Source: a virus
Taxonomy: Duplodnaviria; Caudoviricetes
IMG/VR virus record: IMGVR_UViG_3300006851_000001
Location: 1-48,435 of that record
DNA: 48,435 bases
Direction: 5' to 3' (one strand)
Of the stretch, positions 904 through 36,956 are shown in pieces. The translations under genes and the position numbers were made by a program. The notes beneath the pieces are model-generated. The model was not told the DNA's origin, searched no databases, and was given only the letters and a program-made list of their open reading frames with translations. Position 1 is the stretch's first letter, and each line of letters opens with the position of its first letter.

Positions 904-2213
904 CTCAGCACGCGCGCCTGAGCCCCTCCGACCACGCTTGGGTGCACTGCCCGGGCAAAATCAGGGAGGCGTCAGGATACGTTGACGTTATCTCACCCGC
1001 CGCGATTGACGGGACCGGCTCTCACGAACTCCTAGAGCGATGCCTCGTCGAAGGGAAGAGAGCGGAAGAGTTCATCGGAGACACGGTGGGGGTGGGACAC
1101 GAAGACATGCCGATGGGTTGGTTCGTGGACATCATGCGAGCGGAACGGGTGCAGTTGTGCTTGGACTATGTACAGCGTCGAATCACTGAACTCTCAGATG
1201 AATTCCCGAACGCGACGGTCCACGTCACCGCTGAAGAGAGGGTGAACCCCGGCAAGTTCTGCAATCCTCCCCGCGAGGACTGGCGGGGGACCGCAGACAT
1301 CACCATCGAAGTACTAAACAGCGAGGGCAAGCAGGAGTTCCTCGAGGTAGTGGACTACAAGGATGGGAGAATCTTCGTAAACGCAGAAGAGAACACCCAA
1401 CTTCAGTCATACTGGATAGGCAGAGCGTACGAAACAGATTGCACGTTCTCGTGGCGTTCTCGGATGACAATTGTCCAGCCGAAGACGAACCCGCCCATCC
1501 GCTACACGGAGGACAAGGACAGAAACCAACTGCACCTTGCGTACCAAAGACTAAGCCGCGCGGCGGAGGCAACTGATGACCCCCTCGCGCCCCTCAAGGC
1601 AGGCGATTGGTGCTATTGGTGCCTAGCTAATCCTCGGAGAGGCGGGCACTGCACCCAGCCAGTAGACCAAAGCACTCAGGAGGTGAGTACAATGTTAAAC
1701 GTAGAAGGAGGGAGTTCTATACTAGACGCTCTCCGGAACTCGAAAGTAGAAGACATGAGCGCCGAAGACCTCGCGAAGCTCGCGGACCAAGAGCCTCTAT
1801 TCCAAGCGGCGTTTGACCGAGTCAAAGCTGAAATCTCGGAGCGAGTGAAGCAGGGCTTGCAGGTCCCGGGGTGGGGCATGGTGAGAGGCAACGGCCGACG
1901 GAAGTGGAAGGACGAGGAAGCAGCAGCGGAAGCTCTGAAGAATCGCCGTCTGAAGGCAGCGCAGTACCGCCCTCGCGTGCTTATCTCGCCTGCGCAGGCA
2001 GAAAAGCTCCTAGGTAAGGAAGTCTTCCGACGACTCGAAGAGGACCACGTCGAAGTAATATACGGCGACCCGAAGGTGGGCCGAGTGGCGGGCAACCGAG
2101 GAGATGATATAGAAACTATGTTCATGGGGGTAGACCCCGCAGCCCCGGGTGCGGAAGAGACCGTCGTCGCAGAAGTGACCCCCGACAACCCAACTTCAAT
2201 CTCATTTTTATAA
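900..2213 (+). CDS. DUF2800 family Cas4-like/PD-(D/E)XK exonuclease
   Basis: Motifs HARLSPS..W.HCPG, GT.SHEL.E, GTADI, VVDYKDG, NTQLQSY and GDWCYWC. Ends -ISFL. Confidence 0.88.
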   Translation: MTQHARLSPSDHAWVHCPGKIREASGYVDVISPAAIDGTGSHELLERCLVEGKRAEEFIGDTVGVGHEDMPMGWFVDIMRAERVQLCLDYVQRRITELSDEFPNATVHVTAEERVNPGKFCNPPREDWRGTADITIEVLNSEGKQEFLEVVDYKDGRIFVNAEENTQLQSYWIGRAYETDCTFSWRSRMTIVQPKTNPPIRYTEDKDRNQLHLAYQRLSRAAEATDDPLAPLKAGDWCYWCLANPRRGGHCTQPVDQSTQEVSTMLNVEGGSSILDALRNSKVEDMSAEDLAKLADQEPLFQAAFDRVKAEISERVKQGLQVPGWGMVRGNGRRKWKDEEAAAEALKNRRLKAAQYRPRVLISPAQAEKLLGKEVFRRLEEDHVEVIYGDPKVGRVAGNRGDDIETMFMGVDPAAPGAEETVVAEVTPDNPTSISFL

Positions 2214-2223
2214 AGGTGAAAAT

Positions 2224-3009
2224 ATGTCAACTGTAATCAAAGGAATCTTGAGCTTCCCCAAGCTCTTCAAAGCCGAAAGCAATAGCCCCGCAATGGCCCC
2301 TCGCTTCGGAGTGGTAGTGCTGCTAGAACCAAACGACCCTCAAGTCGCTCAAATTCAGCAAGCCATCCAGACGGCGAAACTCAACCAATGGCCAAACGGA
2401 CAGTTCCCTTCGGTACGTGAGTGCCTTGTGCCGTACGATGAAGCCTTCGCCGGGAAGGACTATTACGACTCTCAATTCTCAGGCTGGTGGACGTTGAGCG
2501 CCAACACCGCAGCGGACAATCCCCCGGCGGTGGTGGGCATGGACCGACAGCCCCTCATGGATGCGACGAAAGTGTTCTCCGGTTGCGTTGCGTACGTCAA
2601 CGTAGGCATCGCAGTGTACACCACCGGGAGCGTAGGCGTTGGTGCATTCCTCAATGGCGTGATGGTCACTGACGAAGAGCCACCGCGTGGTCGTCTGGAC
2701 GGAAAGCCGAGCGTAGACCAGATGTTCTCTGGTGTCCAAGGACACATGCCCGCCCCTGCGCCAGCTCCAGCACCCGCAGCAGCACCAGTAGCTCCAGCTC
2801 CTGCACCCGCACCAGCAGCTCCTGCACCCGCACCCGCACCAGCTCCCGCAGCTCCGGCCCCGGCCCCCGCTCCCGCTCCCGCAGGTCGCCAAATGACTGC
2901 GGCCGCAACCGCAACTTACGAAGCTTACAAAGCGGCTGGGTGGTCAGATGAGGCCCTGATTCAGAATGGACTCATGCACCCACCAGCGGCAACTCCGAGC
3001 TTCCACTAA
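2224..3009 (+). CDS. ssDNA-binding protein (DUF2815/gp2.5-like) with a Pro/Ala linker and a small C-terminal helical domain
   Basis: Motifs LSFPKLF, P.VV..D, FSGC...VNV and GVGAFLNGVM. Sits between the DUF2800 gene and the polymerase. Confidence 0.85.
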   Translation: MSTVIKGILSFPKLFKAESNSPAMAPRFGVVVLLEPNDPQVAQIQQAIQTAKLNQWPNGQFPSVRECLVPYDEAFAGKDYYDSQFSGWWTLSANTAADNPPAVVGMDRQPLMDATKVFSGCVAYVNVGIAVYTTGSVGVGAFLNGVMVTDEEPPRGRLDGKPSVDQMFSGVQGHMPAPAPAPAPAAAPVAPAPAPAPAAPAPAPAPAPAAPAPAPAPAPAGRQMTAAATATYEAYKAAGWSDEALIQNGLMHPPAATPSFH

Positions 3010-3016
3010 CCGCCAC

Positions 3017-3041
3017 GAGGCCCCTTCGGGGGCTTCTTTTT
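3017..3041 (+). terminator. Rho-independent terminator after the SSB gene
   Basis: GAGGCCCC-TTCG-GGGGCTTC stem-loop followed by TTTTT. Confidence 0.8.
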
Positions 3042-3051
3042 GGAGAGTCAC

Positions 3052-3426
3052 ATGAGTTTACTTAAACGAGATAAACACCGGAGCATGGTCTCAGTAGACA
3101 GGTGTCCCGGAGTCGGGAGCGGTTATGGGGATGCTCTCCAGACCCTCATCGACCTCAGACACTGTGAGGGGTCGGTGGCGGTGCACCCCACAGCAGAGGG
3201 AGATGAGCGGCCCTTGGACCTTTTGTTCTTCATCTGGCCCCGCCGAGAGGGAGTAGGGGTAGTAAGTATGTACCTAGGCCCCTCTAGCTCAGCATTTCTG
3301 TCCCCCGCATTCGCGACCAGAGAAGACGCGGAAGCTGCGATAGCGGAGGTAGGAGTCCACGCGGTAGAGAGAATGTTCGAGACGCTCAGCGCCTCGTTTG
3401 GTGAAGGAGGAGATAGCGGTGCTTGA
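3052..3426 (+). CDS. Hypothetical protein
   Basis: ATG at 3052 follows GGAGAG (the track start at 3040 is a TTG within the terminator). Fills the gap before the polymerase. Confidence 0.65.
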   Translation: MSLLKRDKHRSMVSVDRCPGVGSGYGDALQTLIDLRHCEGSVAVHPTAEGDERPLDLLFFIWPRREGVGVVSMYLGPSSSAFLSPAFATREDAEAAIAEVGVHAVERMFETLSASFGEGGDSGA

Positions 3427-5503
3427 CCCAGACAAGTTCGACAGAAGAGTACACATGGACTTCGAGACGTACAGCGAGCTCGACATCAGACGGACGGGGG
3501 CTCACAAGTACGCAAAGCACGGAAGCACTGAGGTGCTGATGCTGTACTATGCGTTCGACGACGAGGAGCCCCTCGGCTGGATTCCAGAAGAATCACCGGT
3601 CATGCCTCAGCCTCTGGTGGAGGCTCTTCGGGACCCCCGCTGCGCTAAGATGGCGTTTAATGCTGCGTTTGAGCGCTTGATATTCAAGCACGTATTGAAT
3701 CTGGACATCCCCATTGACCAGTGGAGATGCACGATGGTTGCGTCTTACTACCTCGGGTTCGTGGGAGGGCTGGACATGGTTCTCCAGCAGACAGGACTTC
3801 AGTCAAGAAAAGACCCAAGGGGCTCTCAGCTCATCAATACTTTCAGCAAGCCGGCACCACGGAACCACCATGCAGAGAGGTACACCAGCAGGAATAAGCC
3901 TCAAGAGTGGGAAGAGTTTAAGCGGTACTGCTATAACGACGTAGTAGTAGAGAGGGAGCTATTTCACTTCCTGAGCGCGTTCCCCGCAATGCCAGAGTGG
4001 GACTGGCATAGGTACTTAGTTGACCAAGAGATGAATGACCGCGGTGCCTATGCTGACGTCAGGATGGCAGAGGGAGCCTTCGAAATCTGGGAGGAGGAGA
4101 AGAAGCGCCTCGCCCTCGAGATACAGAGACTGTCGGGCTTGGAGAGAATTTCCCGAGGACCATTCCTCCAGTTCTTGCAAGACAGGGGGCTGCCCCTCGA
4201 GACAACTCAGAAAGCAGAACTACTCACCTTCGCCACGGACACCAGCGTTCCAGAAGACCTCCGACGCTTACTGTTCCTGTGGATGGAGAGAGAAGGGAAG
4301 GCGGCCAGCAAGTACGCAGCGGTGGCGCGAGGGGCGTGTGATGACTCCCGCGTGAGAGGCATGTTCCAGTTCAAAGGAGCGTCACGGACTGACCGCACCG
4401 CGGGAAGAAGAGTGCAATTACAAAACCTGAAAAGGAGCGTAGCAAGTGACGCCCAAATCCCCTACTTAGTAGGAGCTATTGAGAGCGGGAACGCAGGACT
4501 TCTTAGGATGGTCGCCCCAGAGGGGGTATCGGAGGTGCTAGGGACGTCAATCCGTCACGTAATCCAAGCCCCAGAGGGACGTTCTCTGGTGGCGTTCGAC
4601 CTCTCCAGCATCGAGTCCGTTGTCCTTGGGTGGCTGGTCTACTGCGAGTCAATTCTTGATACGTTCAGGAACGGAAGAGACACCTACAAAGTGTTTGCTT
4701 CACAATACTACGGCCTGAACTATGAAGACATCACTCGGGACCAGAGGAACTTCGCGAAACCCCCTGTCCTCGGGTGCGGGTACATGCTCGGGTGGAAAGG
4801 CCTCATCTCCTACGCAGAGGGGTATGGGGTGGAGATGGATGAGGAATCCGCTCGCCGAGCCGTGAGCACATTCCGCACGATGTACCCAGAAATTTGTGAG
4901 TTCTGGACTTGGATATACGACGCGGTTAAATACGTCATCAAGACCGGAGAGAGACTCGAAGGGTACCGGCTCACCATAGAACGGTGCGAAACCTTCCTGC
5001 GGATTTGGCTTCCATCTGGGAGAGCCCTAAGCTACCAGCACCCAGAAGTGTCGTCGAGGATAGCGCCTTGGACAGAGATTCTGGACTCGAACGGAACGCC
5101 GGTAGACCTGCACTCACTCCGAGAGACTTACCAAGTCCCGGACGAGGAGCTAGTGGCGATGGGGTGGGCGTCGAGCGCCGACCTGATAGAGAACGTATCG
5201 TACATGGGCACCGACCTCGCAGGGCGGTGGACGCGGACCTTCGCACACGCGGGGCTGTTCACCGAGAACATCGTGCAATCAATCGCAATGGATATTCTGA
5301 AAGATGCGATAGTCCGAATGCACCAAGCAGGCTTAGAGATTGTGATGGAAGTACACGACGAGGTCGTGGCGGAAGTTGACGATAGCCACGTGGAGTGGGC
5401 GAAGCAAATCATGCACGAAAGTCTGACGACCCTCCCACCGTGGGCACCTGACCTTTGGCTTGGTGCGGACGGGTACGTCAGTAAGTTTTACAAATCGGAT
5501 TAA
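3398..5503 (+). CDS. DNA polymerase family A (APSE-like) with 3'-5' exonuclease; likely start GTG at 3419
   Basis: Exonuclease motifs DFETYS, AFNAAFE and YCYNDV; polymerase motif A DLSSIES, motif B RNFAKPPVLGCGY, ENIVQ and motif C VHDE. AAGGAGG RBS at 3404-3410. Confidence 0.95.
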   Translation: MVKEEIAVLDPDKFDRRVHMDFETYSELDIRRTGAHKYAKHGSTEVLMLYYAFDDEEPLGWIPEESPVMPQPLVEALRDPRCAKMAFNAAFERLIFKHVLNLDIPIDQWRCTMVASYYLGFVGGLDMVLQQTGLQSRKDPRGSQLINTFSKPAPRNHHAERYTSRNKPQEWEEFKRYCYNDVVVERELFHFLSAFPAMPEWDWHRYLVDQEMNDRGAYADVRMAEGAFEIWEEEKKRLALEIQRLSGLERISRGPFLQFLQDRGLPLETTQKAELLTFATDTSVPEDLRRLLFLWMEREGKAASKYAAVARGACDDSRVRGMFQFKGASRTDRTAGRRVQLQNLKRSVASDAQIPYLVGAIESGNAGLLRMVAPEGVSEVLGTSIRHVIQAPEGRSLVAFDLSSIESVVLGWLVYCESILDTFRNGRDTYKVFASQYYGLNYEDITRDQRNFAKPPVLGCGYMLGWKGLISYAEGYGVEMDEESARRAVSTFRTMYPEICEFWTWIYDAVKYVIKTGERLEGYRLTIERCETFLRIWLPSGRALSYQHPEVSSRIAPWTEILDSNGTPVDLHSLRETYQVPDEELVAMGWASSADLIENVSYMGTDLAGRWTRTFAHAGLFTENIVQSIAMDILKDAIVRMHQAGLEIVMEVHDEVVAEVDDSHVEWAKQIMHESLTTLPPWAPDLWLGADGYVSKFYKSD

Positions 5504-5508
5504 GGTTT

Positions 5509-5817
5509 ATGTCAGAACATAAATTAGAAGAACGAATGCGGCGTTGGGTCACCGCGCGGGGCGGGCTGTACCTCAAGTGGGTGAGCCCCGGCAACGACGG
5601 AGTCCCTGACCGAATCATTCTCCTCAACGGACTGGTAGTGTTCCACGAACTCAAGACAGACACCGGTGAGCTTGAGGTATCCCAGAAAAGAATGCTCCCT
5701 CGAATTGCAGAAGCCATAGAAGGAGGGGGAGCACTCCTGAGGGTGACCTACGGTGCTAAAGGACTTGAGGAATTGATGGACGAATTGAACGAGAAGGGTA
5801 AACACGATGACAGATAA
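5509..5817 (+). CDS. VRR-NUC domain nuclease
   Basis: SE..LE...KWVSPGNDGVPDRI...FHELKT..G.L..SQ pattern. Confidence 0.9.
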   Translation: MSEHKLEERMRRWVTARGGLYLKWVSPGNDGVPDRIILLNGLVVFHELKTDTGELEVSQKRMLPRIAEAIEGGGALLRVTYGAKGLEELMDELNEKGKHDDR

Positions 5818-7405
5818 AACTCGGGGCCTCTTAACCCCGGCAGACCTACACCCCTACCAGAGGGAGGCGGAGCTCCATGCTCTGTATACTGACGAAACAA
5901 TGCTCTGGCTACAGATGGGATTAGGGAAGACTATCATTTCGCTATCGGTAATCACTGACCGGATGCGAGCAGGGCAGGTGAAGAAGACTCTAATCTTCGG
6001 GCCTCTTCGAGTGGTCCGTGCGGTATGGCAGAAGGAAGCGCGGAAGTGGACTCACACAAAAGACCTTAGATTTTCATTCTTACTGGGTTCCCCCGAAAAG
6101 AGGCGACGAGCTCTCTTCGCGGAGGCGGACATCTACCTCTGCAACTATGAGAACATGAATTGGTTGGCGGAGGAACTGGACCACTTCTACCTGAGCAGGG
6201 GCCTTCCTATCCCGTTCGACATGGTAGTCTACGACGAAATCACCAAGGTAAAGAAGTCAACCTCGGTGAGGATTGCGGGAGGGAAGCGAATCCACAAAGA
6301 CCGTCGCACGAAAAAAGAAGTAGAGGTCCACAGAATCGGCTGGAGAAAGTTCATCGACCTCTTCAAATATCGAATGGGGCTGACGGGGACTCCTGCTTCG
6401 AACGGCTACAAAGACCTCCACGGACAGTATTTAGTTCTTGACGGTGGCAAGCGACTCGGCCGGTACGTCACCCACTTCGAGGATAACTTTTTCACGAAGG
6501 GGTACGACGGGTGGAGTATCGAGGTGACCGAACTTGGTCGGAAGGAGATTGAGGCGAGAATCGCAGACATCACTCTCAAGATGGACGCCCACGAGTACCT
6601 CCCTTACATGCCGAAGTGCACCACCAGTAACATCTATGTAGAACTCCCGCCGTCTGCTCTGAAGAAGTACCGCTCCATGGAGCAGCAGATGTTCGCAGAG
6701 CTGGACTCGGGGAAAGAGGTAGAAGTATTCACCCGTTCCTCTGCTGCGATGAAGTGTTTGCAAATCGCGAACGGCTCGGTATACACAACGGTTCTCGAAG
6801 TGGACTACTCACAGGAACACACCGCAGAACCGGTGGAGAAAACCGAATGGCACGAAATACACAAAGCGAAGCTGGATGCTCTGGAGGAGATTATAGACAG
6901 TGCGGCGGGGGCCCCCGTCTTAGTTGCTTACTCATTCAAAAGCGACGCGGCCAGAATCATGCAGCGATTCTCCAAACTAAATCCAGTGAACCTCAGTACT
7001 GAGAAAGACAGTAGAACTGAGAAAATTATCCGAGACTGGAACGACGGCAAAATCCCCTTGATGATAGGGCACCCGGCTTCCATGGGGCACGGCATCGACG
7101 GACTTCAGGAGAGAGGGAGCATCGCGGTGTGGTTCGGCCCAACCCGGGACCTCGAGCTGTACGACCAGTTCAACTCAAGACTTAACCGACAAGGGCAGAC
7201 CAAGCCAGTTTCTATCTTGAGGATTCTCGCGGAAGACACCATTGACCTCGCTGCGGTGGCGGCGTTGGAAGCCAAGGCGACTGACGAAGCAGGCCTCAAG
7301 AAAGCGATAGATGCGTATCGGAGGAGGAAGGGAGAGGGAGCAGACTTTTTAGAGACCGCCCCTCGTGATATTATGAGGCAGACTGGGAACATTTCATTCT
7401 TATAA
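5807..7405 (+). CDS. SNF2-family DNA helicase
   Basis: Motifs LHPYQ, MGLGKT, VYDEIT, GLTGTPASN, HPASMGHGIDGLQ and QFNSRLNRQGQ. Ends -ISFL. Confidence 0.92.
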   Translation: MTDKTRGLLTPADLHPYQREAELHALYTDETMLWLQMGLGKTIISLSVITDRMRAGQVKKTLIFGPLRVVRAVWQKEARKWTHTKDLRFSFLLGSPEKRRRALFAEADIYLCNYENMNWLAEELDHFYLSRGLPIPFDMVVYDEITKVKKSTSVRIAGGKRIHKDRRTKKEVEVHRIGWRKFIDLFKYRMGLTGTPASNGYKDLHGQYLVLDGGKRLGRYVTHFEDNFFTKGYDGWSIEVTELGRKEIEARIADITLKMDAHEYLPYMPKCTTSNIYVELPPSALKKYRSMEQQMFAELDSGKEVEVFTRSSAAMKCLQIANGSVYTTVLEVDYSQEHTAEPVEKTEWHEIHKAKLDALEEIIDSAAGAPVLVAYSFKSDAARIMQRFSKLNPVNLSTEKDSRTEKIIRDWNDGKIPLMIGHPASMGHGIDGLQERGSIAVWFGPTRDLELYDQFNSRLNRQGQTKPVSILRILAEDTIDLAAVAALEAKATDEAGLKKAIDAYRRRKGEGADFLETAPRDIMRQTGNISFL

Positions 7406-7422
7406 GCTAAAGGAGGGGGTCC

Positions 7423-7620
7423 ATGGCTCTTCCTGTTCTAGTCACAAAACCCATAGCATGGCTCGCCAGAACAATTCTGGTGACGCTACTCCCTCTGGCA
7501 TTTGCCCTGACCCTTGGCGTCAGCATGGCGGTGAGAGAGTGCGAGAGACTTCGGACCTTAGAAGCGAAGGGGAAAACAAAAGGGAAGAGTGAAGAGGTCA
7601 AGGCAAGGGAGCGAAGTTAG
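7423..7620 (+). CDS. Small membrane protein
   Basis: AAGGAGG RBS, hydrophobic segment and basic C-terminus. Last plus-strand gene before the convergence point. Confidence 0.6.
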   Translation: MALPVLVTKPIAWLARTILVTLLPLAFALTLGVSMAVRECERLRTLEAKGKTKGKSEEVKARERS

Positions 7621-14577: not shown

Positions 14578-17500
14578 CTATTCTCCACGTTTTCCATATG
14601 CCAGTCCTTGGAATGTCATCTCTTCCCCTTCCTCCAGCACGTCGTAAAGGTGGAAAATTGAAGCTGTCGTTTGGGAGCCCCCGGGGATATGGGCCACCGC
14701 CATTGCTGCTCTCACCAAACCTTTCACTTCTCCTCGGGTCATGGGCTTCGGGTCTTCAGAGAAAATCTGGCGACCCCCAGCAAGTATGCCATCGAGACCG
14801 TCCGAGACTATCCCTTCGATAGGGGACAGTCGGTACTCGTACCCAGAGCCCAATGCGCTCACCAAGTCTCTGCCTCCGGGGATGCCTGCGAGAGGGAACA
14901 TCCCCATATAGAGCGCTAGTCTCGCGGCCCACTCCCCCGTCCCTTCATCTTCTTCCGGCATGAAGTCCCCCATTATCCAAAGGTCGAGAAGAGCAGGGAG
15001 GGAGATGACGAACGCCAACTTCGCCGCAGTCTCCACCATAGAGTAGTAGCCCAGTCGCTGGCCGTCACGAATGTCGCGAACTTGGTTCCACATAGCAGAG
15101 AACCAGCTCATGAACATGGTGAGGCTTCGATGCACCGGGCTATTATTCCTCATGAGCGCAGCAGTGTCTGCTATTCTTGCCGTACCCTGTGTCATCTCTA
15201 CCGCAGCATCGGCGTAACGGAACGCCTTCGCCTCGTCACCAGAGGCTTTCATCTCCTTGATATACGCGCCGTACCACGTAGGAAGGCTGAGCGTGTACAA
15301 GTCAATCAGCCCAATATGGAGGAGGGCTACATCTCTAACGGGGTCCAGTACGCTTTTCTTGCCTCTCTGCGCTGCGGACTGGATAGTCTTCGCTACCTCT
15401 CGGTCGAAGCTCGCCACCCTGTGAGGGAGGATTTTAGAGTTAGCCATCGCCCACTCAATCCCGCTCTGCATGTCCTCGGGGCTACGGAACATAGCTCTGA
15501 TTCCCTGAAGGATGTTCCCCCATCCGACTTCCGCGGCGGAGTTAGAGAAGCCCGGAAACTGTCTCAGGCCCGTGGAAATCTTGAACCCCATGTACGTCAG
15601 CGTGGCCCCTGTGGTGAGGTGCTGAACCGCGGCATCTAAGAAAGTTTTCATGGGGGCTTCCTGACCTTGCTTGGCGATGTCCCTGAGCCAAGGCATGAAC
15701 TGTTCCGCCTCTTCGGGGCCAATTCTCTCTCGCAGCGTCTTCATGACCTTGGGGTCGCGAATGAGTCTATTAGTCTGCCTCACCGCATCGTGGTGGGTAA
15801 TGAAGTGAATCGTCTCTCCGAAGTGAGAACTCACCACGTCTAGACTCAGACGAATGGGTGCGTAGAACCCAGTCCGAGTCTCAGTAGCACTGGCCACCAC
15901 TGACGCCTGAATCCCGCCCGGCGTAAACCACGAGTCAGCCATCGCGTCTGCCCGCTCTTGGAAGTCAGCCGCCTTTCGGGAGCGAACGGAATCGTACTTA
16001 ACCGGGTAGTACCCTCCTCGGAACTCCCCGAACTCAGTGGTCACGGGGGTGGCTTCCACTCGCGGAGGACGGAGACCGGTCGTCTTCTGGTGCACGTCTG
16101 CGAGGGCAGGGTACAAGAGCTCCATTTGGTCCCAGATTAGCTGCACCAGTTCCCAGTCACTTTTAGTCATCTTACTCAGAACCGCGCGGAGCTTGGGGTT
16201 TTCTAGTGAGATTGAGTCGGGGTTGTCCGGGTGGGCCCAGCCTTCTCCAAGGAGAAGCTTTCTCAGGTTCCCTTCGTTCCCTACGTTCAGAGCTACCGCC
16301 AGAATCTGATGTCCATAAAGGCTCTCTTTAATCTCAGGAATGTAGTGCAGTTTCTGGTGTCGAGCGTGGTCTTCCTTGGTTCGGTTCCTGAGCGCGTTCA
16401 CCACCGGCTCGCCGACTGCCTTGTAAAGTCTTTGAGAGTGGTCCCATGCGTCGGTGAAGGGCTGCATGAATACCTCATGAGAGAATCCTGCGGCCTCCCC
16501 CATGTCCAGTTTCTTAGTGAGCCACGACATCTTCGTCAACTGCGCCATCCCCCAAGCGACTTTCCTCCGCACCCCAGTTCTCCGCTCCACTGTCTCTCGG
16601 AGGGAGTCCTCGTGTACCTTGGGGAGTCGTTCCCATGCGGACGTGAGACGGTCCACCACTGCTTCATGGGCCATGGTCTCTTCCGCCAACTTGACTTTGT
16701 TGCTGTAGCGAGCCACGTGTTCTATGTTCTTGATGGAGTCTCTCACCCCCTCGAGGACCTCGAACGGGACATCCTTCCAGTGAGTTACGTAGGACGAGTC
16801 GAGGGCTTCAGGGGACAGGACTAGAGCGTCCCCGTAGGTCGACATTCTCTCCTCAGCCCACATCGCAATCTGCTGGTTCTTCGCCTCCACCTGCGCCATC
16901 GTCGCGGTCTTCCTTAGCTCGAATCTGCTAAGGAGAGAATCAATCTGCTCTAGGTGGCCGCCTCCGCTCTTGGCAATCTCGCGGCGAAGAGAAGTCTTTC
17001 CGAAACGAGAGGACCACGCACGGATGTTCTCGATTCCCGCCCGTGCCTTTTCCGCCTCTGCGGCCATGTAGTGGGCAAGGAGCTGCTTAGTGAGGGCCGT
17101 CGCCTCCGCCTCTCTGTCACCCCGAGCGTGCGCCTGACCTGCCTCTCGGGCAGCACGGACTTCCGCTCTTCGGTACGCCATAGGTTTGATTTCTCGGAAA
17201 CTCATCCCGCCAATCTTCTTCCTCGCCATCTCTCTCATCTGGCGCCGGGTCTCCACCGCTTGGCTCCTGCGGAGGGATGAAAGCCTCTTCAGAAGAACCT
17301 CAGCCGCCATCTCATCGGCGAGGATAGTCTCAGCCATTGAGGACAAGGTTCCGTCCGAGATGGGGTCCCCGTGCCTCTCCTTGAGAATTGCTTCCGCTTC
17401 TTCCCTCAGCATGGTTTTCTCACTGGGGGAGTCAATGATGTCTCGAAGCATTTCTTCGCCAGAAGTATACCCTAGGGCTCGGGCCGCCACGTCGGGGTCC

Positions 17501-23500: not shown

Positions 23501-24219
23501 CTTCGCAGTCTCTCGAACTCCTCAGGGGTTTTCGGGTGGAGGCTGACGTCGTCCGGGTCCTTCCCTAACTCCGACAGCAAGTCACTGATTATCAAGTCTT
23601 GCGTAATAAGCCCCAACTGAACGTCCGACCCCACGCTCCCCGTCAGAGGATTCTCATTGCCCTCTCGTGTCAGGAACTCGTGGTCTCTCCACAACGAGAG
23701 TCGCTGCCCAAGGTCCCTCTGCTCGAACATCAGTTGAGTCTCTCGGCCCAGACCTCTGAACGTCTTGCCAATGGAATCTAGGAGACTATACTCGCCGAAC
23801 GACGGCACGCCTATGTCCGGGTTATTCGCAAGAAGTTCGGCCGTTCGCGGATGATTCACCGCAAGAGAGTGAGCCGCGTGAATCTCATCCTCGGACGACG
23901 CCTCGAATTGTCGAGCGAGGGCCGGGTCTCTTTCAAAAGCATCAGGGGAGACGCCTGTCCTTTGACTGAGCTCGAGAAGCTTCGAATACTCATCGACGTC
24001 TTTCCGAGAAGCCGCAAGCGCCATCCCCTCGAGCCCGCCTACGAGCTCTTTCTCGATGGCCTCTCGCCCAGTCTCGGTCGCAGGAATCTCCACTTCCGAT
24101 TCGGAGAGAGGGGATTCGACGGTCTGGGCTTCCTCTAGTTCTAGCCCCTCTCGTGTTTCAGGTTCTTCTCTGTCAAAGAGGTCCCAGTTCACTCCCGTAG
24201 TGTCTTGGTTTTCAAACAT
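14578..24219 (-). CDS. Giant internal virion/ejection polyvalent protein (3213 aa)
   Basis: Third of the ejection-protein genes. Contains an LPD22-like region, GNAT-like, CmoA-like SAM-binding, FRAVHDYFGH, HEFAH zincin and ART-like motifs (see findings). Confidence 0.85.
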   Translation of the reverse strand: MFENQDTTGVNWDLFDREEPETREGLELEEAQTVESPLSESEVEIPATETGREAIEKELVGGLEGMALAASRKDVDEYSKLLELSQRTGVSPDAFERDPALARQFEASSEDEIHAAHSLAVNHPRTAELLANNPDIGVPSFGEYSLLDSIGKTFRGLGRETQLMFEQRDLGQRLSLWRDHEFLTREGNENPLTGSVGSDVQLGLITQDLIISDLLSELGKDPDDVSLHPKTPEEFERLRSDALKLYSEKWQEADEKIENVTPMNLNWFQQGARMGIAGLATEGPAMVASLIPYAGPVLGTSITYHNSYADHFGRGLSTYIEQGYSEDVAIERADSYARTAATIDGATSLIPFGAFARVFRGAPGRQSYQRATGRVATAVGEAIGGRAGGFIMKKGIANVAKGSVPLASQTVRDRLKDHLASFLLSSGIGMQVDALLLGLNDTWNEIDQEAHRMMSEGDIAGWAHHQLDKQLIALVASTISDGSFALAGAGAGKARDLLVLKGEDAEAEAPAGQGPETSEAQAAPAEGLPARDPRVRELMNAAEKSKMARRSPTAFRQTVKSLGGDDITIMLDREAATEYLQARSREEIEADPLLRDMQERLERTQDGGTDLSFTGTEFVTQIAPSAHAKKLSQAFTTDEGGISPYREARNLGEAMEELVKTSKESAQLAKEVQEVTARVTSDLLTSGRYSKAEAKVMGRVVSAYVMEKARSSGISPEEALTRGGNFLRVLGPMTGRSPVPKGALTQRDPNPRRFRQMDDTDRARKRFAKLQNEALDAQGDRAVFADRMSSSALKGARLFVSEDQRSGFAIDAEGEVVGLFKHPEAESTSVLEDALAHARAHGATKFTGFEVEALREKIKKGGFVESSREAFDSELAPSGWDSESLGTPDVVTFEPSYESTGEATMGFFEGVARGEHGRPDEVKFLPQISELAETINDPETRFGRYHQEYLRHAGHFDDHIAQSIPGYRDFQYAIGLGLLETFGDGATFLDIGASQGTQAKSLSSLSGGKIKSISLDPNLGMKDTFNAISRVEGARFEHGALGFYPYQRAGEVAWTESDGTPVRYWDNKGEKFDIVHEAMTFQFISPDRRAHIARTKELTKEDGIAIFQEKVVTEDAEWKAHEAAKDSFKRQTFSEKDMQEKAETVLTGMKANQVHEAELVAELKRHFKYVHQIWDSGNFKGYAASDSQETLANFARNTPDTRTKWDTRNRGVKTSGERQADGSLVGLPRIRGAAHNPEVAAVAEAYMQKAGMPYDPPAHYAEVNVSWAEEIARLYGEMEHRPNDPEVKAAYDALIEETLAQYEAMLEAGVQIEIMDMSKGDAYGGDPRRAIEDVRDNNHLYIFGTKDGYGPDTVLDPSDNPMVRETKYRDINGVPLLANDVFRAVHDYFGHAKEGVGFRAAGEENAWRAHASMYSPLARRAMTSETRGQNSWVNYGPHGEHNRTAKDDTIYAEQKVGLLPEWVSEAGRNDDSLPVPLMRKTFERKLSGEESLGKLYQKEDAGSYALADHEVRYSPSAELLESGDSPTEARVGEWVEWFEGKVEAGELTDAELRWTGLRSVFRGVRTPVTREEVLAAVTDSVTLSEAEVTLVTDVTSETVAMDAPLTSISAARSVAVRAVVEGVDTIVSADVPSEVKAWLKGLGAEESVFFPTVGEDGRASFRITERAKESILASGFFFQRADSAEIRGYYEPENNIIRLTDAANLTTFLHEFAHFMLEGESRGSDIDLRVTKWLVDNAEAGASETNSILAELADPELNQRAFHASSKILMEFSAEAASSGEGFGGGNHWGVYFTKTESMAEWYREAAKAKEGKGEVTVAEVPESSLLIQEDLPVSEQPDWVRERLLTVYDLFAPRKPVKGYQVDGELIGSDSPYFRAAELLANLGREEAQAEQRRRIAWAKEDGDPSRVEVLEAQLRFLELAEGAEAVQGDLAKQPSEMDAGELYSYMALKLGGRQQASEFLMGMGIPGAEFTSPVSGETNFVIWDNSAMSPSNVQQQELMTARLRQSKKRSTKGEVSPEDFRRYLVEGTSGDAAVDSAMYVARHELIARAFEAYTMEGVSPSAELREPFRKISSWMMQVYKEVGALDTPIDDTVRGVFDRLLASDEEIEATLRARKLAEEHEGLLGDLDTPEARERKASEESAVLSAKEKLRARVMNSLRRMIDAERKGQLSDIEDEIRPRIEQLPVNAARRALSDTLPLDRAAVRAMVGELKTSKTGTEYIAIPTALRGMTKTGGEGVDPDVAARALGYTSGEEMLRDIIDSPSEKTMLREEAEAILKERHGDPISDGTLSSMAETILADEMAAEVLLKRLSSLRRSQAVETRRQMREMARKKIGGMSFREIKPMAYRRAEVRAAREAGQAHARGDREAEATALTKQLLAHYMAAEAEKARAGIENIRAWSSRFGKTSLRREIAKSGGGHLEQIDSLLSRFELRKTATMAQVEAKNQQIAMWAEERMSTYGDALVLSPEALDSSYVTHWKDVPFEVLEGVRDSIKNIEHVARYSNKVKLAEETMAHEAVVDRLTSAWERLPKVHEDSLRETVERRTGVRRKVAWGMAQLTKMSWLTKKLDMGEAAGFSHEVFMQPFTDAWDHSQRLYKAVGEPVVNALRNRTKEDHARHQKLHYIPEIKESLYGHQILAVALNVGNEGNLRKLLLGEGWAHPDNPDSISLENPKLRAVLSKMTKSDWELVQLIWDQMELLYPALADVHQKTTGLRPPRVEATPVTTEFGEFRGGYYPVKYDSVRSRKAADFQERADAMADSWFTPGGIQASVVASATETRTGFYAPIRLSLDVVSSHFGETIHFITHHDAVRQTNRLIRDPKVMKTLRERIGPEEAEQFMPWLRDIAKQGQEAPMKTFLDAAVQHLTTGATLTYMGFKISTGLRQFPGFSNSAAEVGWGNILQGIRAMFRSPEDMQSGIEWAMANSKILPHRVASFDREVAKTIQSAAQRGKKSVLDPVRDVALLHIGLIDLYTLSLPTWYGAYIKEMKASGDEAKAFRYADAAVEMTQGTARIADTAALMRNNSPVHRSLTMFMSWFSAMWNQVRDIRDGQRLGYYSMVETAAKLAFVISLPALLDLWIMGDFMPEEDEGTGEWAARLALYMGMFPLAGIPGGRDLVSALGSGYEYRLSPIEGIVSDGLDGILAGGRQIFSEDPKPMTRGEVKGLVRAAMAVAHIPGGSQTTASIFHLYDVLEEGEEMTFQGLAYGKRGE

Positions 24220-33062: not shown

Positions 33063-34759
33063 TACACTCCCACTCCTGCTGCCTGCATCGCCCTCGAGAG
33101 CATACTTCCGTCGGCCCCACCAACCTCAGTCTCGCTCGCCAGTTTCGCTGCTTGGGCCAAATCTTTCGCGCTCTGCGCCCCCGATTCCGCCATCTCGCGT
33201 CTCTGGGCTTCTTCTCTCTGCGCGTCCAATATCGCCTGCACTTCTTCTTCGGGTCGAAGCAACTCTGGGTCCGCCCCTGAAATCTTACCGTACTCTCTGA
33301 GCATTGCGGGACCATTTAGATATGGGATTACTGATGGGTCAAACTGCGCGAGCTGTCCCGCGAACCCGACCATTCTTTCGATGTTTCTCAAGCCGACCAT
33401 CCGTTGTGCTTGGGCGAGTGCCGAGACGTATTCTACTTGAAGCTCCTGCCCCAGCATCTCCTCAGGCGCCTCAGGGAACACACCCTGAGACTGGAGGATT
33501 TCGAAGCTCCGAGAAATCAATGGGTCCAGAAGTTCGTTATGAACTCTCTCGAGTACCGGGCCTATCTGTAGTAACTTCTCCTCGTGCCTCTCAATCACCT
33601 CTCGTGCGGTAACCCCTGAGCGCTCCCCTATCGCATCCATCGCTCGGAATAGGTCAACGTAGAACGCCTCTCTGATTCGGAACTCCGCCCTCGCTACGGA
33701 ATTCTCCATATGTTGCAGGGACGGGTTGTAGTTAGGCATCAGAGGCTTCAGTTCTTCGTTGGGGTTCTCTGAGTAATAAGTCCTTCCGGGCTCAGGCGCC
33801 GCATCCCCGAGCAGCCTTCTCAAGGATGACGATGCGATGAAGCTGGGGTCCGCCAGTCTGTCGGTGGCCACCAAGATGTCTCGCTCAGCTACCTGTAGCC
33901 CTTTGGCGTCCCCCAAGGCGGTGAGGCCCGGGGAGTTAGTGCCATATAGGTCCCCCGGGGAGAGTTCCCACCGGGGTGTCAAGAACGGAAACGTTCTGTA
34001 TCCAGATACCCTCAGGGCGCCGTCTGCCTTCGAAGCCCCGGCCACCCAAGTCACCGCGCGGTATGGTAAGTCCCATGCAAAGGGGCTCTCATCATTTCTG
34101 TCGTCGTTTGGCTCAACGAGGTAGATGACCTCGACCATGTCGTTCTCGCCGCCGTTCTTCCAGAGGTTACGAACTATCTCCGGGCAATTCTCTAGCCCGT
34201 AGTCCTTCACTATAGACGCTACCGTCTTCTTCCTCCGGACACTAAACGCATCAGGCAGCTCTCGCTTCCCCTCCCCCAGCGCGTACTGGCCTGCGGTCTG
34301 GGTTTCGAATCTTAGAAAAGTTTCGTCGTCTTCGAACACTCCCATAGCACACGTGCCAAAGTTTCCTAGCTCGCCGTATGCGGTCTGAAGACTGTTGTAT
34401 AGGTTTGAAATCGAGAACACCCGGTACATAATTTGGGTGCAAGTGAATAACCATTGCTGGACTTCGGGGTCCTTATCGAGGACCACGTCCCCCGATGATA
34501 GGCGGAACCACTCCCGCGCTGGAGACGTAATTCCTGACATGAGTCCCGCGGTCAATACTCTAAGGGCGAGTATTGGTGCGTTATTGAAAATCTTGTTGTC
34601 TCGTCGCTTCCCTTGATTCACATCGCCGAGGTCGTACCTCCCCCGATGAACGAGGAAGTTCTCTGTCAAGTCCCTCCACGTTTCTAAGAAAGACTGTCTC
34701 CCCTTCTCCATCGAAGCGACTCGTCTTTCCAGTTTCCTCAAGTCCACGCTATGGCGCAT
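33062..34759 (-). CDS. Portal (head-tail connector) protein
   Basis: GLMSGITSPAREWFRL, SNLY, FGT, PRW...G..YG..PG..ALGD.K.LQ, TAREV.ER.EEKL..IGPVLER and VEYVSALAQAQR. Confidence 0.93.
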   Translation of the reverse strand: MRHSVDLRKLERRVASMEKGRQSFLETWRDLTENFLVHRGRYDLGDVNQGKRRDNKIFNNAPILALRVLTAGLMSGITSPAREWFRLSSGDVVLDKDPEVQQWLFTCTQIMYRVFSISNLYNSLQTAYGELGNFGTCAMGVFEDDETFLRFETQTAGQYALGEGKRELPDAFSVRRKKTVASIVKDYGLENCPEIVRNLWKNGGENDMVEVIYLVEPNDDRNDESPFAWDLPYRAVTWVAGASKADGALRVSGYRTFPFLTPRWELSPGDLYGTNSPGLTALGDAKGLQVAERDILVATDRLADPSFIASSSLRRLLGDAAPEPGRTYYSENPNEELKPLMPNYNPSLQHMENSVARAEFRIREAFYVDLFRAMDAIGERSGVTAREVIERHEEKLLQIGPVLERVHNELLDPLISRSFEILQSQGVFPEAPEEMLGQELQVEYVSALAQAQRMVGLRNIERMVGFAGQLAQFDPSVIPYLNGPAMLREYGKISGADPELLRPEEEVQAILDAQREEAQRREMAESGAQSAKDLAQAAKLASETEVGGADGSMLSRAMQAAGVGV

Positions 34760-34938
34760 TATCTGGCGCTCCCCAGTAAAGTCTTGCCTGAGCTACCTCG
34801 ACTCGCTCCTCCCGTGAGGAGAGTGCCCATTGCCTCTCTCCGCTCGCCCTCTATTGGTGTCTGGTCAGGCAGGCGAGGCGCCTCCGGTGGGAGGGGAGGT
34901 GGTTCTGGCGTTTCAATTTTTGGCTTAGGAGTACACAT
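34759..34938 (-). CDS. Small virion protein (59 aa; not in the ORF track)
   Basis: MCTPKPKIETPEPPPLPPEAP...TLLTGG...GKTLLGSAR*. GAAGGA RBS, TAATG overlap with the portal start, and the MC..P..TLLG form typical between TerL and portal. Confidence 0.8.
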   Translation of the reverse strand: MCTPKPKIETPEPPPLPPEAPRLPDQTPIEGERREAMGTLLTGGASRGSSGKTLLGSAR

Positions 34939-34947
34939 ATTCCTTCC

Positions 34948-36465
34948 TCAAAAGGGCTCATATCTGCGCACTTTAGCAGGTTCGCCTGCGTATGGGAAGA
35001 GGTCGTCCTCGTCCTCTGCGTTAAGCTTCAAGAGGTTCACCGCTGTCTTGCTCGCGAACGTCAACAACATAGCGTCCATGTCATCGGGGGACCTCCCGAT
35101 TCGTTGCTTCATGTGTCGCTTCGATTCCATCAGGAGTCGGTCCTTGCTGTCGAAGGTGAACTCTCTGTTCGTCAAGTCCTCCTCTAGCTCCTCCACGTCA
35201 GGGAGCGCCCCGCCCGATTGCATCCACTCTAGTAGCCGTGAACTCATCTCCGAGGTCCTGTCCGCGAATTTCGAATCTTCCTCCGCCCGGTGCCCGAACC
35301 CCACGTCGACGACATTGTACCCCAGTTGCCTTAGCCGGTCATTGATGGGCCCTCCCATTGAGCCCACGTCCCCGAAGCAGATGTCGGGGCGATGTCGGTC
35401 CAGCACCGTTGCAATCATCGCGGCAACTTTCATCGAGTCCCTCGACTTCTCCGCGGGGATTTCATATCGGTCAAACGTCCTCGCGTCTCTCCCCCTGCGG
35501 AACTGAATCACGCACTTATCCGAACCTCCCCTCGCGTAGTCGAGGCCGCACACCAGAGGCTCTCCCCTCAGCCCGAGAGGAACTGGTCTCTTTCTCGCAG
35601 CAGAGACCACGTCGGTTGGGAAATACTGGAGGTCCGACGCCCGCGGGAACACGCCCCGAACACGAACGCGGAAGAAGTCCGAGTCTTCCCCGTGCACCTC
35701 CGCCCATTCATTCAAGAGCGTCTTGTTGGTCCACCGTACCGTACGGCTGTCTACTTGCTTTGTCCGCCAGCGACTATCTGCAAATTTCTTCTTGAACTCC
35801 CCGGTGTTCCTCGTGGGGTTCCCAAACGCGAAGAACATAGGCTCGCCGTCCGTAAGTCCCCCTTCCGCTACCTCCCAGATGACGTCAGGCACCGCAGAGG
35901 CCTCGTCAAAAATATAGAACGAGGTGGAGTTCATATTGTGCTGGCCCGCGAACGCTTCCGAGTTCTCCTCTCGACACGTCACCGCGTCCACTCGCCACGT
36001 CTCATTGTACGCGGGGTGGTAGAGGCTCAAAGACCCCTTACCTGAGTTCAGCTCAAACCAATGCCCCACTATGCACCGGTTCTTCCACTTCGCTAATTCA
36101 CCCCATGTCTTGGTCCGCAACTGGTCCCCGGTATTCGCCGTCACCGTGCCCTTCGCGTGGGGCCGGGTGGACATGATGAAGAGTATTAGAATCGCCACCA
36201 ACGCAGACTTCCCGATACCGTGCCCCGAAGATACTGCTGAGCGGATGGGGACTACTGGGTCTACGCCGTTAAACGCCCGGTCTTTTATCGCCTCCCCCAG
36301 CGCTCGGAGTTCTTCCTCTTGCCACGGGTCAAGCCCGTCAATCCCCGCCAGCTCCCCGTGCCCCCAGTCGAATGCCCAGTACGCCCACGACACAGGGTCG
36401 TCGTAGTACATCGCGCACCTTCTCTGGAGTTCCTGCTCAATCGACTCGATGTCTCTAGCGTCCAT
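34948..36465 (-). CDS. terL: Terminase large subunit
   Basis: Walker A SSGHGIGKS, Walker B YIFDEAS, FGNPTRNTG, RVRVRGVFP, GLDYARGGSD and RSPDDMDA. Confidence 0.95.
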   Translation of the reverse strand: MDARDIESIEQELQRRCAMYYDDPVSWAYWAFDWGHGELAGIDGLDPWQEEELRALGEAIKDRAFNGVDPVVPIRSAVSSGHGIGKSALVAILILFIMSTRPHAKGTVTANTGDQLRTKTWGELAKWKNRCIVGHWFELNSGKGSLSLYHPAYNETWRVDAVTCREENSEAFAGQHNMNSTSFYIFDEASAVPDVIWEVAEGGLTDGEPMFFAFGNPTRNTGEFKKKFADSRWRTKQVDSRTVRWTNKTLLNEWAEVHGEDSDFFRVRVRGVFPRASDLQYFPTDVVSAARKRPVPLGLRGEPLVCGLDYARGGSDKCVIQFRRGRDARTFDRYEIPAEKSRDSMKVAAMIATVLDRHRPDICFGDVGSMGGPINDRLRQLGYNVVDVGFGHRAEEDSKFADRTSEMSSRLLEWMQSGGALPDVEELEEDLTNREFTFDSKDRLLMESKRHMKQRIGRSPDDMDAMLLTFASKTAVNLLKLNAEDEDDLFPYAGEPAKVRRYEPF

Positions 36466-36473
36466 TCACCACC

Positions 36474-36956
36474 TCATAGAAAAGAAATCTGTGGAGTAGC
36501 CTCTTCGAACTCCGCCTCAACCACCTCGCCGGTGTTCCGCAGTCGGGCTCTCTCCCGTCCTCGTATGAGACGCTCTGCTAACTCCTCCCCCACTTTGAGC
36601 TCTATCTTATCCGCCGCGAATGCGTCCACCGCAGCCATCTTCCCTATGAGCTCGAGCGCTTTGTTACTCGCAGACAAGTTCCCCATCTGCCGCGCCAGCT
36701 TATGGTTATCCACCATCTCATAAAGAAGCCACTCCGCCGTAATGTCGGAGGCCGCCATCCGCCTCTGCAACACCAGATTGACAGCCCGCTTGACATCTAC
36801 CTGTGAGAGAAGTCTCTGTCCTTGGGACACGTCCAGCCCGCACCGCTCGGCGGCGAGTCCCGGGTTGAAGTCTTTGGTGTACTCAATCACGAACGCTGCT
36901 TGACCTACATTCAGGTTCCGTAGCTCAGGGATTGAGATGTAATCTTTAACGCTCAT
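36474..36956 (-). CDS. terS: Terminase small subunit
   Basis: Q.AFVIEY.KDFN...AA.R.G HTH and KALELIGK. Directly upstream of terL. Ends -QISFL. Confidence 0.88.
   Translation of the reverse strand: MSVKDYISIPELRNLNVGQAAFVIEYTKDFNPGLAAERCGLDVSQGQRLLSQVDVKRAVNLVLQRRMAASDITAEWLLYEMVDNHKLARQMGNLSASNKALELIGKMAAVDAFAADKIELKVGEELAERLIRGRERARLRNTGEVVEAEFEEATPQISFL

Follow-up and report, generated by a model that had tools for sequence, protein, structure and literature searches.

Three unrelated proteins end in ISFL directly before the stop codon in the 48,435-nucleotide stretch of phage DNA analysed here (the window), namely a DUF2800 nuclease, an SNF2 helicase and the small terminase (TerS). Judging from the homologs, ISFL is one version of a conserved C-terminal motif, in which a flexible, often acidic linker is followed by a terminal Phi-[S/T/N]-F-Phi. 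Across a group of marine phages a single genome can have as many as seven DNA-handling proteins with this tail motif. The ISFL-type tails are likely to be a common docking plug, which would bring the recombination nuclease, the SNF2 helicase, the SSB and TerS to one partner on replicating DNA. The tagged genes of the window and their ends are as follows.

900..2213, plus strand: gene for a DUF2800 (Cas4/RecB-like) exonuclease, tagged client (PF10926, E 2e-43; phrog_69 exonuclease)
2199..2210, plus strand: terminal tag ISFL of the DUF2800 protein (end ...NPTSISFL; codons ATC TCA TTT TTA, stop TAA)
2224..3009, plus strand: gene for an Enc34/T7 gp2.5-type SSB, tagged client and candidate receptor (PF10991, E 1.7e-15; phrog_112)
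2995..3006, plus strand: terminal tag variant PSFH of the SSB (protein end ...ATPSFH)
5807..7405, plus strand: gene for an SNF2-family helicase, tagged client (PF00176, E 4.9e-15; phrog_62)
7391-7402, plus strand: terminal tag ISFL of the SNF2 helicase (end ...QTGNISFL; codons ATT TCA TTC TTA, stop TAA)
36474..36956, minus strand: gene for TerS, tagged client (PF03592, E 1.7e-6; phrog_51)
36477-36488, minus strand: terminal tag ISFL of TerS (end ...ATPQISFL; codons ATT TCT TTT CTA, stop TGA)

An earlier note on this DNA had listed the three ISFL ends with their codons, which is exactly what is found, and had pointed to the related TPSFH end of the SSB, which is also there. Across the six reading frames of the window ISFL occurs four times in total, and three of these are C-termini. 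When ORFs were simulated with the amino-acid composition of the window, a match of the last four residues between any two of the 63 arose in 3% of trials, so a three-way match is far rarer. The motif [ILVP][STN]F[LFMI], which was defined post hoc after the data had been inspected, closes 3 of the 63 window ORFs (0.016 expected) and matches 4 of 15,420 internal positions. It is worth noting that the final residue varies between the clients of a single genome, so the exact ISFL triple owes something to chance, given how few variants the motif allows. At the DNA level, 9-10 of the 12 tag bases are identical among the three genes and every difference is synonymous, while the flanks are at chance level (13-19 of 60 bases identical upstream, 6-10 of 30 downstream). 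A DNA repeat is thus ruled out as the source of the shared ends. Together with orthologs that keep their ends while the linkers change, this strongly supports the earlier proposal of selection on the protein rather than DNA duplication.

In relatives of the phage, the last 3-4 residues are kept among orthologs, and the linkers before them drift in both length and sequence. The motif closes 127 of 3,682 pooled ORFs and matches 307 of 747,955 internal positions, an 84-fold enrichment at the C-terminus. Of the 50 annotated proteins of the cultured Vibrio phage 1.021.A, 6 end with it, where 0.018 would be expected. A comparison of ortholog C-termini had been proposed as a check, and the motif is kept, as Phi-[S/T/N]-F-Phi, in DUF2800 (12 of 13), SNF2 (12 of 13) and TerS (59 of 66). 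The twelve tagged DUF2800 orthologs of the clade end in Phi-[S/N]-F-Phi, and the remaining one ends LTFLS. The relatives also add clients that had not been listed before: an ATP-dependent DNA ligase (PF01068 and PF14743), an N6-adenine methyltransferase, an Nlig-Ia domain protein (PF22745) and unknown proteins adjoining TerS. Linkers that are not acidic exist too, on SNF2, the SSB and the methyltransferase. The only host hints come from the MAG bin of one relative and from the Vibrio hosts of cultured relatives. The parts of the window's proteins that matter for these comparisons are given below.

7319..7402, plus strand: C-terminal extension of SNF2 past its globular end, closing with ISFL (alignment A5)
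36477..36548, minus strand: flexible acidic linker and terminal ISFL of TerS (alignment A2)
2109..2132, plus strand: second shared motif (motif A) in the DUF2800 tail, IETMFMGV (F408 near-invariant in alignment A3)
2713..2727, plus strand: motif A of the SSB, VDQMF, residues 164-168 (M167 invariant and F168 near-invariant in alignment A4)
2884..2973, plus strand: conserved two-helix mini-domain of the SSB, behind a Pro/Ala-rich linker (pLDDT 88-94 over residues 221-250)

The SNF2 helicase carries 10-28 added residues ending Phi-x-F-Phi in 12 of the 13 clade members, and in distant homologs and in L013 it terminates at ..RY[RK].. without an extension (alignment A5). A wider scan found the tag in 14 of 15 loci with at least 50% SNF2 identity, against 0 of 61 more distant loci. 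For TerS, the globular part of the aligned proteins closes with ..ERL.R.R.R, after which come 0-22 linker residues and then, in 5 of the 6, SF[LIM] (alignment A2). The tail is present in 59 of 66 database homologs, and 54 of 65 TerS-like ORFs on viral contigs are tagged. A TerS with 91% identity to that of the window still ends ITFL, although its linker differs. In G001, G004 and G005 TerS is tailless, with the replication proteins still tagged. Among the 13 SSB ends of the clade, eight are [PT]SF-x, two more are PSFSQ or PSYA, and three have no tail. Its AF2 model has an OB domain over residues 1-160 (pLDDT about 90) and a short helix at 164-167. Directly after this OB fold lies motif A, [VI]E.MF..V, which is shared with the DUF2800 tail, and in L012 (G004) ML replaces MF in both proteins. 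The mini-domain pattern MTAAA..TY....GW[ST]DE.LI..G.M matched 17 ORFs, every one a clade SSB.

A docking code at the protein level is well supported by these alignments, and with more clients than first listed. We infer that all copies of the tail are read by one receptor, since every client has DNA as its substrate or ligand (exonuclease, SSB/annealase, SNF2, TerS, ligase, Nlig-Ia protein and methyltransferase) and since DUF2800 and the SSB also share motif A, with MF and ML varying jointly in L012. In addition to the SSB, three untagged proteins of the window come into question.

3398..5503, plus strand: family A DNA polymerase, untagged, unlikely receptor (PF00476, phrog_17)
45868..48435, plus strand: primase-helicase (DUF5906), untagged, clade-conserved, putative receptor (PF19263)
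34948..36465, minus strand: large terminase (TerL), untagged, putative receptor for the TerS tail (43-61% identity in G001-G005)

The note had proposed a common hub such as the host DnaN or a phage primase or polymerase. A phage polymerase is unlikely in this role, as members of the tagged clade have one or the other of two unrelated polymerase families and the tails are unchanged: in G002-G005 and L002 a phrog_1252 polymerase stands in for the family A enzyme, and the tags persist.

The leading guess, and a tentative one, is that the receptor is a sliding clamp, either the beta clamp of the host or a phage beta-clamp-domain protein that some relatives encode. A clamp stays as the best single guess for the hub, though the tails match the canonical clamp-binding motif only in part. 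In bacteria, the motifs that bind the beta clamp (Q-phi-x-L-F, QL[SD]LF) are described as short peptides, often at the extreme C-terminus behind a flexible linker, by which many unrelated DNA enzymes bind one cleft; an example is QLSFF of Bacillus subtilis MutS, and positions 2-5 share their chemistry with I/V-S-F-L/F (preprint 10.64898/2026.05.27.728225). A clamp is suggested by the pattern of the tails (aliphatic, small polar, hydrophobic, hydrophobic), which is that of positions 2-5, by a client list that resembles the clamp tool-belt, and by tags that are independent of the genome's polymerase family. The TerS of the window, ending QISFL, has Gln at position 1 as well, and DinB from the possible host of a relative ends in a five-residue motif of similar shape, QLRLI. 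However, Gln at position 1 is listed among the three most important positions of the clamp motif (preprint 10.64898/2026.05.27.728225), and it is found in the window's TerS only, most tails having D, E, S, N or P. The invariant Phe of the tag falls on position 4, which is Leu in clamp-binding motifs, and the final residue is variable (L, F, M, I or W). TerS and an SSB are also not known clamp partners.

Some relatives encode a beta-clamp-domain ORF, which again points to a clamp. The ORF at L187:3622-4245 matches a DnaN profile (E 3e-15; hhalign 97.9%), Foldseek returns nothing but beta clamps as top hits, and the gene order around the primase is the same in L187 and Vibrio phage 1.021.A. Its fold is confident for one domain only, so it may not form a ring. 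Weaker clamp-like matches occur in L110 and L016/L017. The ORF of L016/L017 is itself tailed like the nuclease and SSB of that phage (..DAEQFV, ..DAEAFV, ..EAEAFV), which suggests that the tails of that lineage have a different receptor. Searches of the window and of G001-G005 yielded no clamp-like gene. Precedents for a clamp exist in other phages. The C-terminal tails of T4 gp43, gp33 and gp55 bind the gp45 clamp. Several T4 proteins are so docked by a common hydrophobic C-terminal tail to a single ring, which connects replication, late functions and packaging, much as would be the case here, and T4 packaging in vitro is reported to be gp45-dependent (PMC12867686). Unlike the window, in which neither clamp nor loader was found and polymerases are untagged, T4 has genes for a clamp and a loader, and the T4 polymerase is among the clients. 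In phage Mu, MuC has two clamp-binding motifs that engage the host beta clamp (PMC12867686). Here too, a late function of a clampless phage would be built on the host clamp, but Mu has one client, near-consensus motifs and experimental proof, whereas here several clients carry a divergent motif of predicted function.

The SSB groove, the primase-helicase and TerL remain rival receptors. In E. coli, the C-terminal tip of SSB (..DDDIPF) is a hydrophobic tip on an acidic linker and is read by a pocket for the free C-terminus. The tails described here have a similar build with the direction reversed, as many enzymes bear the tip instead of one SSB presenting it to many. It is possible, though improbable, that the receptor is the phage's own gp2.5/Enc34-type SSB. 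The tails would then occupy its concave beta-sheet groove, where ssDNA and the SSB tail also bind, and tailed enzymes would be recruited to the SSB or push it off ssDNA locally. A C-terminal tail that lies in a neighbour's groove, with 842 A2 buried, is described for crystals of Enc34 ORF6, two other DUF2815 proteins and T7 gp2.5 (PMC5686142), but these crystal contacts may not be functional. An SSB is found in every tagged genome, it shares motif A after the OB fold with DUF2800 (including the joint change to ML in L012/G004), distant relatives of both proteins have acidic D-F ends, and the clade SSBs carry the extra folded mini-domain on a long linker. Against this, the SSB itself has the weakest variant of the tag (PSF plus H, V, N or A), with 3 of the 13 genomes lacking it, and the AF2 monomer is moderately confident for the tail (mean pLDDT 72 over residues 251-260, 41 at the final residue).

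A lower probability is given to a code like that of T7, in which gp2.5 and gp4 bind the polymerase and primase-helicase through acidic tails that end in Phe; here the tails would dock on an untagged core replisome enzyme, most likely the DUF5906 primase-helicase. Phe is the last residue of the T7 tails and the second to last in the tails of this clade. The SSB is gp2.5-like (phrog_112) and of the same fold family, in both systems a flexible tail with an important Phe is common to the SSB and a further replisome protein, and the gp2.5 tail of T7 is implicated in binding to the polymerase and to the primase-helicase alike (PMC5686142, PMC10359462). The untagged primase-helicase is conserved in 6 of 6 whole genomes (47-49% identity to the window's in G001-G003, 36% in G004, 27% over a partial match in G005; the window's protein ends ..IVDIKKTV, spanning the terminal repeat), and the tagged clamp-like ORF of L016 fits a non-clamp receptor. 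However, the T7 receptor is the polymerase, whereas here the polymerase is exchanged between two unrelated families with no change in the tags. The clients are also more numerous and include TerS, nothing links TerS, ligase or methyltransferase to the primase-helicase, and several linkers (SNF2, SSB, methyltransferase) are non-acidic.

Still less probable is that the TerS tail is a TerL-binding end as in lambda gpNu1 and P22 gp3, and that the replication-protein tails either reach TerL as well, bringing branch-clearing enzymes to the packaging motor, or are look-alikes with other partners. In lambda and P22 a flexible C-terminal part of TerS is reported to serve protein binding, with TerL as its partner (PMC9611059). 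TerL is conserved across the clade and the tail is a trait of the whole family in this lineage of TerS (59 of 66), but the tails of lambda and P22 are not common to the same phage's replication proteins, the tailless TerS of G001, G004 and G005 goes together with tagged replication proteins, a tailed ligase and methyltransferase are hard to place at the motor, and near-identical tails on unrelated proteins within one genome argue against separate partners. Hydrophobic C-terminal peptides can also act as degrons, and a tag read by a host protease to set protein level or timing, the alternative raised in the earlier note, would suit the strict C-terminal placement, but it is very improbable for clients that are limited to DNA-handling proteins, that include an SSB and TerS needed in large or lasting amounts, and that have the flexible acidic linkers typical of docking tails, and a protease link was not found.

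If the receptor is a sliding clamp, clamps remaining on newly made phage DNA would serve as a landing pad common to repair and recombination enzymes, to DNA modification and to the packaging initiator TerS. Such a shared clamp pad, if true, would couple packaging to replication.

Three DNA-handling proteins of this phage end in the same four residues, ISFL, and their relatives indicate that the ending is very probably a conserved short linear motif of the docking type, selected at the protein level and common to proteins that handle DNA. The virus record is complete at 48,435 bases and its end (48300-48435) repeats its start (1-150), as a terminal repeat or circular assembly; the primase gene therefore spans both ends, and the primase-helicase ORF that seemingly runs off the record end closes with ..IVDIKKTV within the first bases. 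By Pfam and PHROGs, the plus strand carries a replication and recombination arm (DUF2800 exonuclease, SSB of the Enc34/T7 gp2.5 type, family A polymerase, VRR-NUC, SNF2 helicase and DUF5906 primase-helicase), and the minus strand a podophage-like head and packaging arm (GP7-type capsid protein, portal, large terminase TerL, small terminase TerS and an ORF of 3,213 residues). The genes with the shared ending are:

900-2213, plus strand: DUF2800 nuclease, ending ..NPTSISFL
5807-7405, plus strand: SNF2 helicase, ending ..QTGNISFL
36474-36956, minus strand: TerS, ending ..ATPQISFL

The nuclease matches PF10926 (E 2e-43, profile positions 1-360 of 368) and the exonuclease family phrog_69, and the helicase has the SNF2 ATPase domain (PF00176, E 4.9e-15, with ResIII and DEAD; phrog_62, E 1e-123). 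TerS belongs to Terminase_2 (PF03592, E 1.7e-6, 29.1 bits, the cut-off being 26.1; phrog_51) and directly precedes TerL, its gene ending 9 bases before the TerL start. Elsewhere in the packaging arm, the 3,213-residue ORF (14578-24219, minus strand) is kept in all relatives at 36-43% identity, with a length there of about 2,000-2,500 residues. A small protein of 59-176 residues is encoded between the TerL and portal genes (34759-34938, minus strand) and also as the ORF after TerL in four of the five related whole phage genomes (G001, G002, G004 and G005) and on the related contig L245; in every genome inspected it closes with a conserved ..K[TS]LLG and 0-3 more residues, and G004 and G005 have a tandem pair of such genes.

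The earlier note had described the common ISFL ending, with codon sets that we find unchanged, and had favoured selection on the protein over duplication of DNA; both statements hold. ISFL occurs four times across all six frames of the window, three of them being C-termini, and in a simulation based on the composition of the window, 3% of trials gave, among 63 ORFs, a pair with identical last four residues. Among the three genes 9-10 of the 12 bases coding for the tag are identical and every difference is synonymous, while the flanks agree no better than expected by chance (13-19 of 60 bases upstream, 6-10 of 30 downstream). Since the similarity is confined to the 12 coding bases, a repeated element or a stop-codon signal in the DNA is rejected as the cause. 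After each tagged gene a Shine-Dalgarno-like run and the next start codon follow within 8-17 bases (2211-2228, 7403-7427 and 36463-36476), which puts the stop codon after the tag in a setting of translational coupling; the DNA of the three stop regions shows no conservation between sites.

The tail is also kept in orthologs. On the DUF2800 protein the end [IVLP]-[SN]-F-[LFMI] is found in 12 of 13 clade genomes, the thirteenth having LTFLS, and SNF2 is likewise tagged in 12 of 13. When viral contigs were searched with SNF2, 137 relatives were found and 80 kept: 14 of the 15 loci with at least 50% identity end in Phi-x-F-Phi (ITFL, VNFF, LTFM, LSFL), compared with none of 61 more distant proteins. 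In SNF2 the tail adds 10-28 residues past the globular end ..RY[RK].., where untagged homologs stop. For TerS, 0-22 linker residues separate the globular end ..ERL.R.R.R from a closing SF[LIM] in five of six aligned sequences, and a protein 91% identical to that of the window has a different linker and ends in ITFL. In a large protein collection, 59 of 66 TerS homologs (41-92% identity) close with an acidic run and [VIPL][ST]F[FLMIV]; on 75 further viral contigs 54 of 65 TerS-like ORFs are tagged, and five of the remaining 11 have near variants. TerS of G001, G004 and G005 has no tail, and the replication proteins of these genomes are tagged. Of the SSBs from the 13 clade genomes, eight close with [PT]SF-x and two with PSFSQ or PSYA, and three have no tail. 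Within genomes the tag does not co-vary strictly, as the last residue differs among the tagged proteins of one genome. With the single DUF2800 protein as query, the viral contigs gave a match only to the sibling contig L001.

Further tagged proteins are found across the related genomes. In G001 to G005, respectively, 3 of 50, 4 of 60, 5 of 66, 2 of 68 and 1 of 81 ORFs end in the strict motif, and these include uncharacterised ORFs of 154-205 residues adjoining TerS, four of which (in G001-G003) have no family in Pfam or PHROGs. The contigs with TerS have 87 tagged ORFs among 1,583, made up of 54 TerS, one DUF2800 protein and 32 others. Pfam searches with 16 of those 32 gave one ATP-dependent DNA ligase and one protein with an Nlig-Ia ligase-like domain, below-cut-off matches only for three, and no match for 11. 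Cultured clade members with known hosts include Vibrio phages of the 1.021 group, which infect Vibrio splendidus. As an example, in Vibrio phage 1.021.A the strict motif ends 6 of 50 annotated proteins (0.018 expected), namely TerS, SNF2, an N6-adenine methyltransferase, a DUF2800-like protein, an uncharacterised protein before TerS and another uncharacterised one; its SSB ends in PSFA. Over 3,682 pooled ORFs the motif is enriched 84-fold at C-termini, but it was defined after the data had been seen, and P values are therefore illustrations rather than tests. The tagged proteins of about 200 residues before TerS (G001 38423-39013, G002 37842-38459, G003 989-1603) have a segment ..VW[VL][IL]RN.D[RK]Y.. 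that is also present at the C-terminal end of the primase-helicase, and judging from this common segment the two may have one small DNA-binding or interaction module in common.

Tails that dock several proteins onto one partner are known from T7 gp2.5 and gp4, T4 clamp clients, bacterial beta-clamp-binding motifs (CBMs, Q-phi-x-L-F) and the SSB tip. The SSB of the window has the gp2.5/Enc34 fold (PF10991, E 1.7e-15; phrog_112 'Gp2.5-like'; a confident OB domain in the AF2 model), as in the T7-type system. A T7-type tail, however, is strongly acidic with an aromatic as its very last residue, whereas here Phe is second to last, and acidic linkers occur in TerS and DUF2800, with none in SNF2 or in the SSB, where the linker is rich in Pro and Ala. 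DUF2800 and SSB also have in common a second motif, [VI]E.MF..V, directly after the OB fold of the SSB and 20-90 residues from the DUF2800 end; in G004 both proteins have ML for MF, the only clear in-step change. As distant DUF2800 and SSB relatives have acidic D-F motifs at their ends, the terminal Phi-S-F-Phi seems to have been added, in this clade, to a gp2.5-type acidic Phe tail of older origin. Clade SSBs combine a low-complexity Pro/Ala-rich linker with a conserved mini-domain (linker and mini-domain together at 2730-2973 in the window). The mini-domain, ..TY....GW[ST]DE.LI..G.M, has about 30 residues and is predicted with high confidence by AF2 as two helices; it may resemble a helix-extended-helix (HeH/SAP-like) motif. 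In pLDDT the OB fold scores about 90, the linker 50-55 and the mini-domain 88-94, and in this monomer model the tail averages 72 over residues 251-260 and drops to 41 at its last residue. The related locus L002 has the mini-domain in duplicate (L002:5206-6099).

As the receptor of the tails we rank a sliding clamp first, tentatively. The list of tagged proteins resembles a clamp tool-belt, and the chemistry of the tail matches CBM positions 2-5 as described in a preprint (10.64898/2026.05.27.728225): I, V or L (or P) at the aliphatic position 2 and S, T or N at the small or acidic position 3 in nearly all tags, then always Phe at position 4, and L, F, M, I or W at position 5. One point against a clamp is that a CBM has Leu where the tags have Phe; the same preprint gives MutS QLSFF, which also has Phe there, as a proven clamp binder, 1.5-3-fold weaker than QLSLF. 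It also counts position 1 among the three most important, and in the window only TerS has Gln there (QISFL, compared with SISFL in DUF2800 and NISFL in SNF2), the relatives having mostly D, E or P. No clamp gene was found in the window. Three relatives encode an ORF of 180-208 residues with a beta-clamp domain:

L187:3622-4245, plus strand: beta-clamp-domain ORF
L110:1582-2121, minus strand: beta-clamp-domain ORF
L016:4719-5342, plus strand: beta-clamp-domain ORF

These ORFs keep the most conserved segments of DnaN (RYYLNG, DGH, P..V.P and C-terminal ..MP.R.). The L187 ORF matches a DnaN profile with E 3e-15 (97.9% by hhalign), and its AF2 model is one confident domain for which all top Foldseek hits are beta clamps; the ORFs of L110 and of L016/L017 match clamps more weakly. 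In L187 the gene has a DUF3310 gene, itself after the primase, on one side and an RNR-like gene on the other, and Vibrio phage 1.021.A has no gene there. The DnaN profile matched only L187 among the 3,682 phage ORFs, a mini-clamp profile matched nothing in the window or G001-G005, and hhalign comparisons of three uncharacterised window ORFs (209, 251 and 166 residues) with DnaN were negative. A further point against a clamp is that the clamp-like ORF of L016 itself ends in the tail common to that phage's nuclease and SSB.

It is less likely that the tails bind the groove of the phage SSB, which would recall published crystals of the SSB family (PMC5686142), in which the tail of one molecule lies in the groove of the next. 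The primase-helicase, conserved and untagged, is an unlikely receptor. TerL is more doubtful still: the tails of TerS bind TerL in lambda and P22 (PMC9611059), but here the tail is missing from TerS of G001, G004 and G005 and retained on their replication proteins. The phage polymerase, which is the receptor in the T7-type system and which the earlier note had named as a possible hub, is also unlikely, because two unrelated polymerase families are exchanged within the tagged clade. In the window, L001, G001 and L009 the enzyme is of family A (phrog_17). G002-G005 and L002 have in the same slot an unrelated polymerase of phrog_1252, which does not match PF00476 and matches the archaeal B-family entry 1s5j only weakly; the tags are unchanged. 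In otherwise syntenic replication modules, this slot is located at:

window 3398-5503: polymerase slot
L005:6793-8808: polymerase slot
L006:4794-6776: polymerase slot
L012:5887-7884: polymerase slot (L012 being G004)
L014:4628-6616: polymerase slot
L002:6961-9030: polymerase slot

That the tail is a degron is very improbable.

With a sliding clamp as receptor, the picture for this clade of marine podophages of about 45 kb, which we put forward as possible rather than probable, is that a four-residue C-terminal address, Phi-S/T/N-F-Phi, would load the nuclease, SNF2, SSB, ligase, methyltransferase and TerS onto clamps remaining on newly replicated DNA. The clamp would be that of the host or, in some members, a mini beta-clamp made by the phage, and one peptide code, distinct from the canonical CBM, would physically tie packaging, repair and modification to replication. 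Full-text literature searches found no paper combining sliding clamp, terminase, clamp-binding and phage. The docking logic is the same as that of T7 tails, T4 clamp clients, CBMs and SSB tips; the peptide differs, the phage group is unstudied, abundant and marine, and the client list also takes in the small terminase, a ligase and a methyltransferase. Outside T4 it is an open question how packaging finds newly replicated concatemers. If one receptor does read all the tails, replication, recombination, DNA modification and the start of packaging would be coupled through it as their organising centre.
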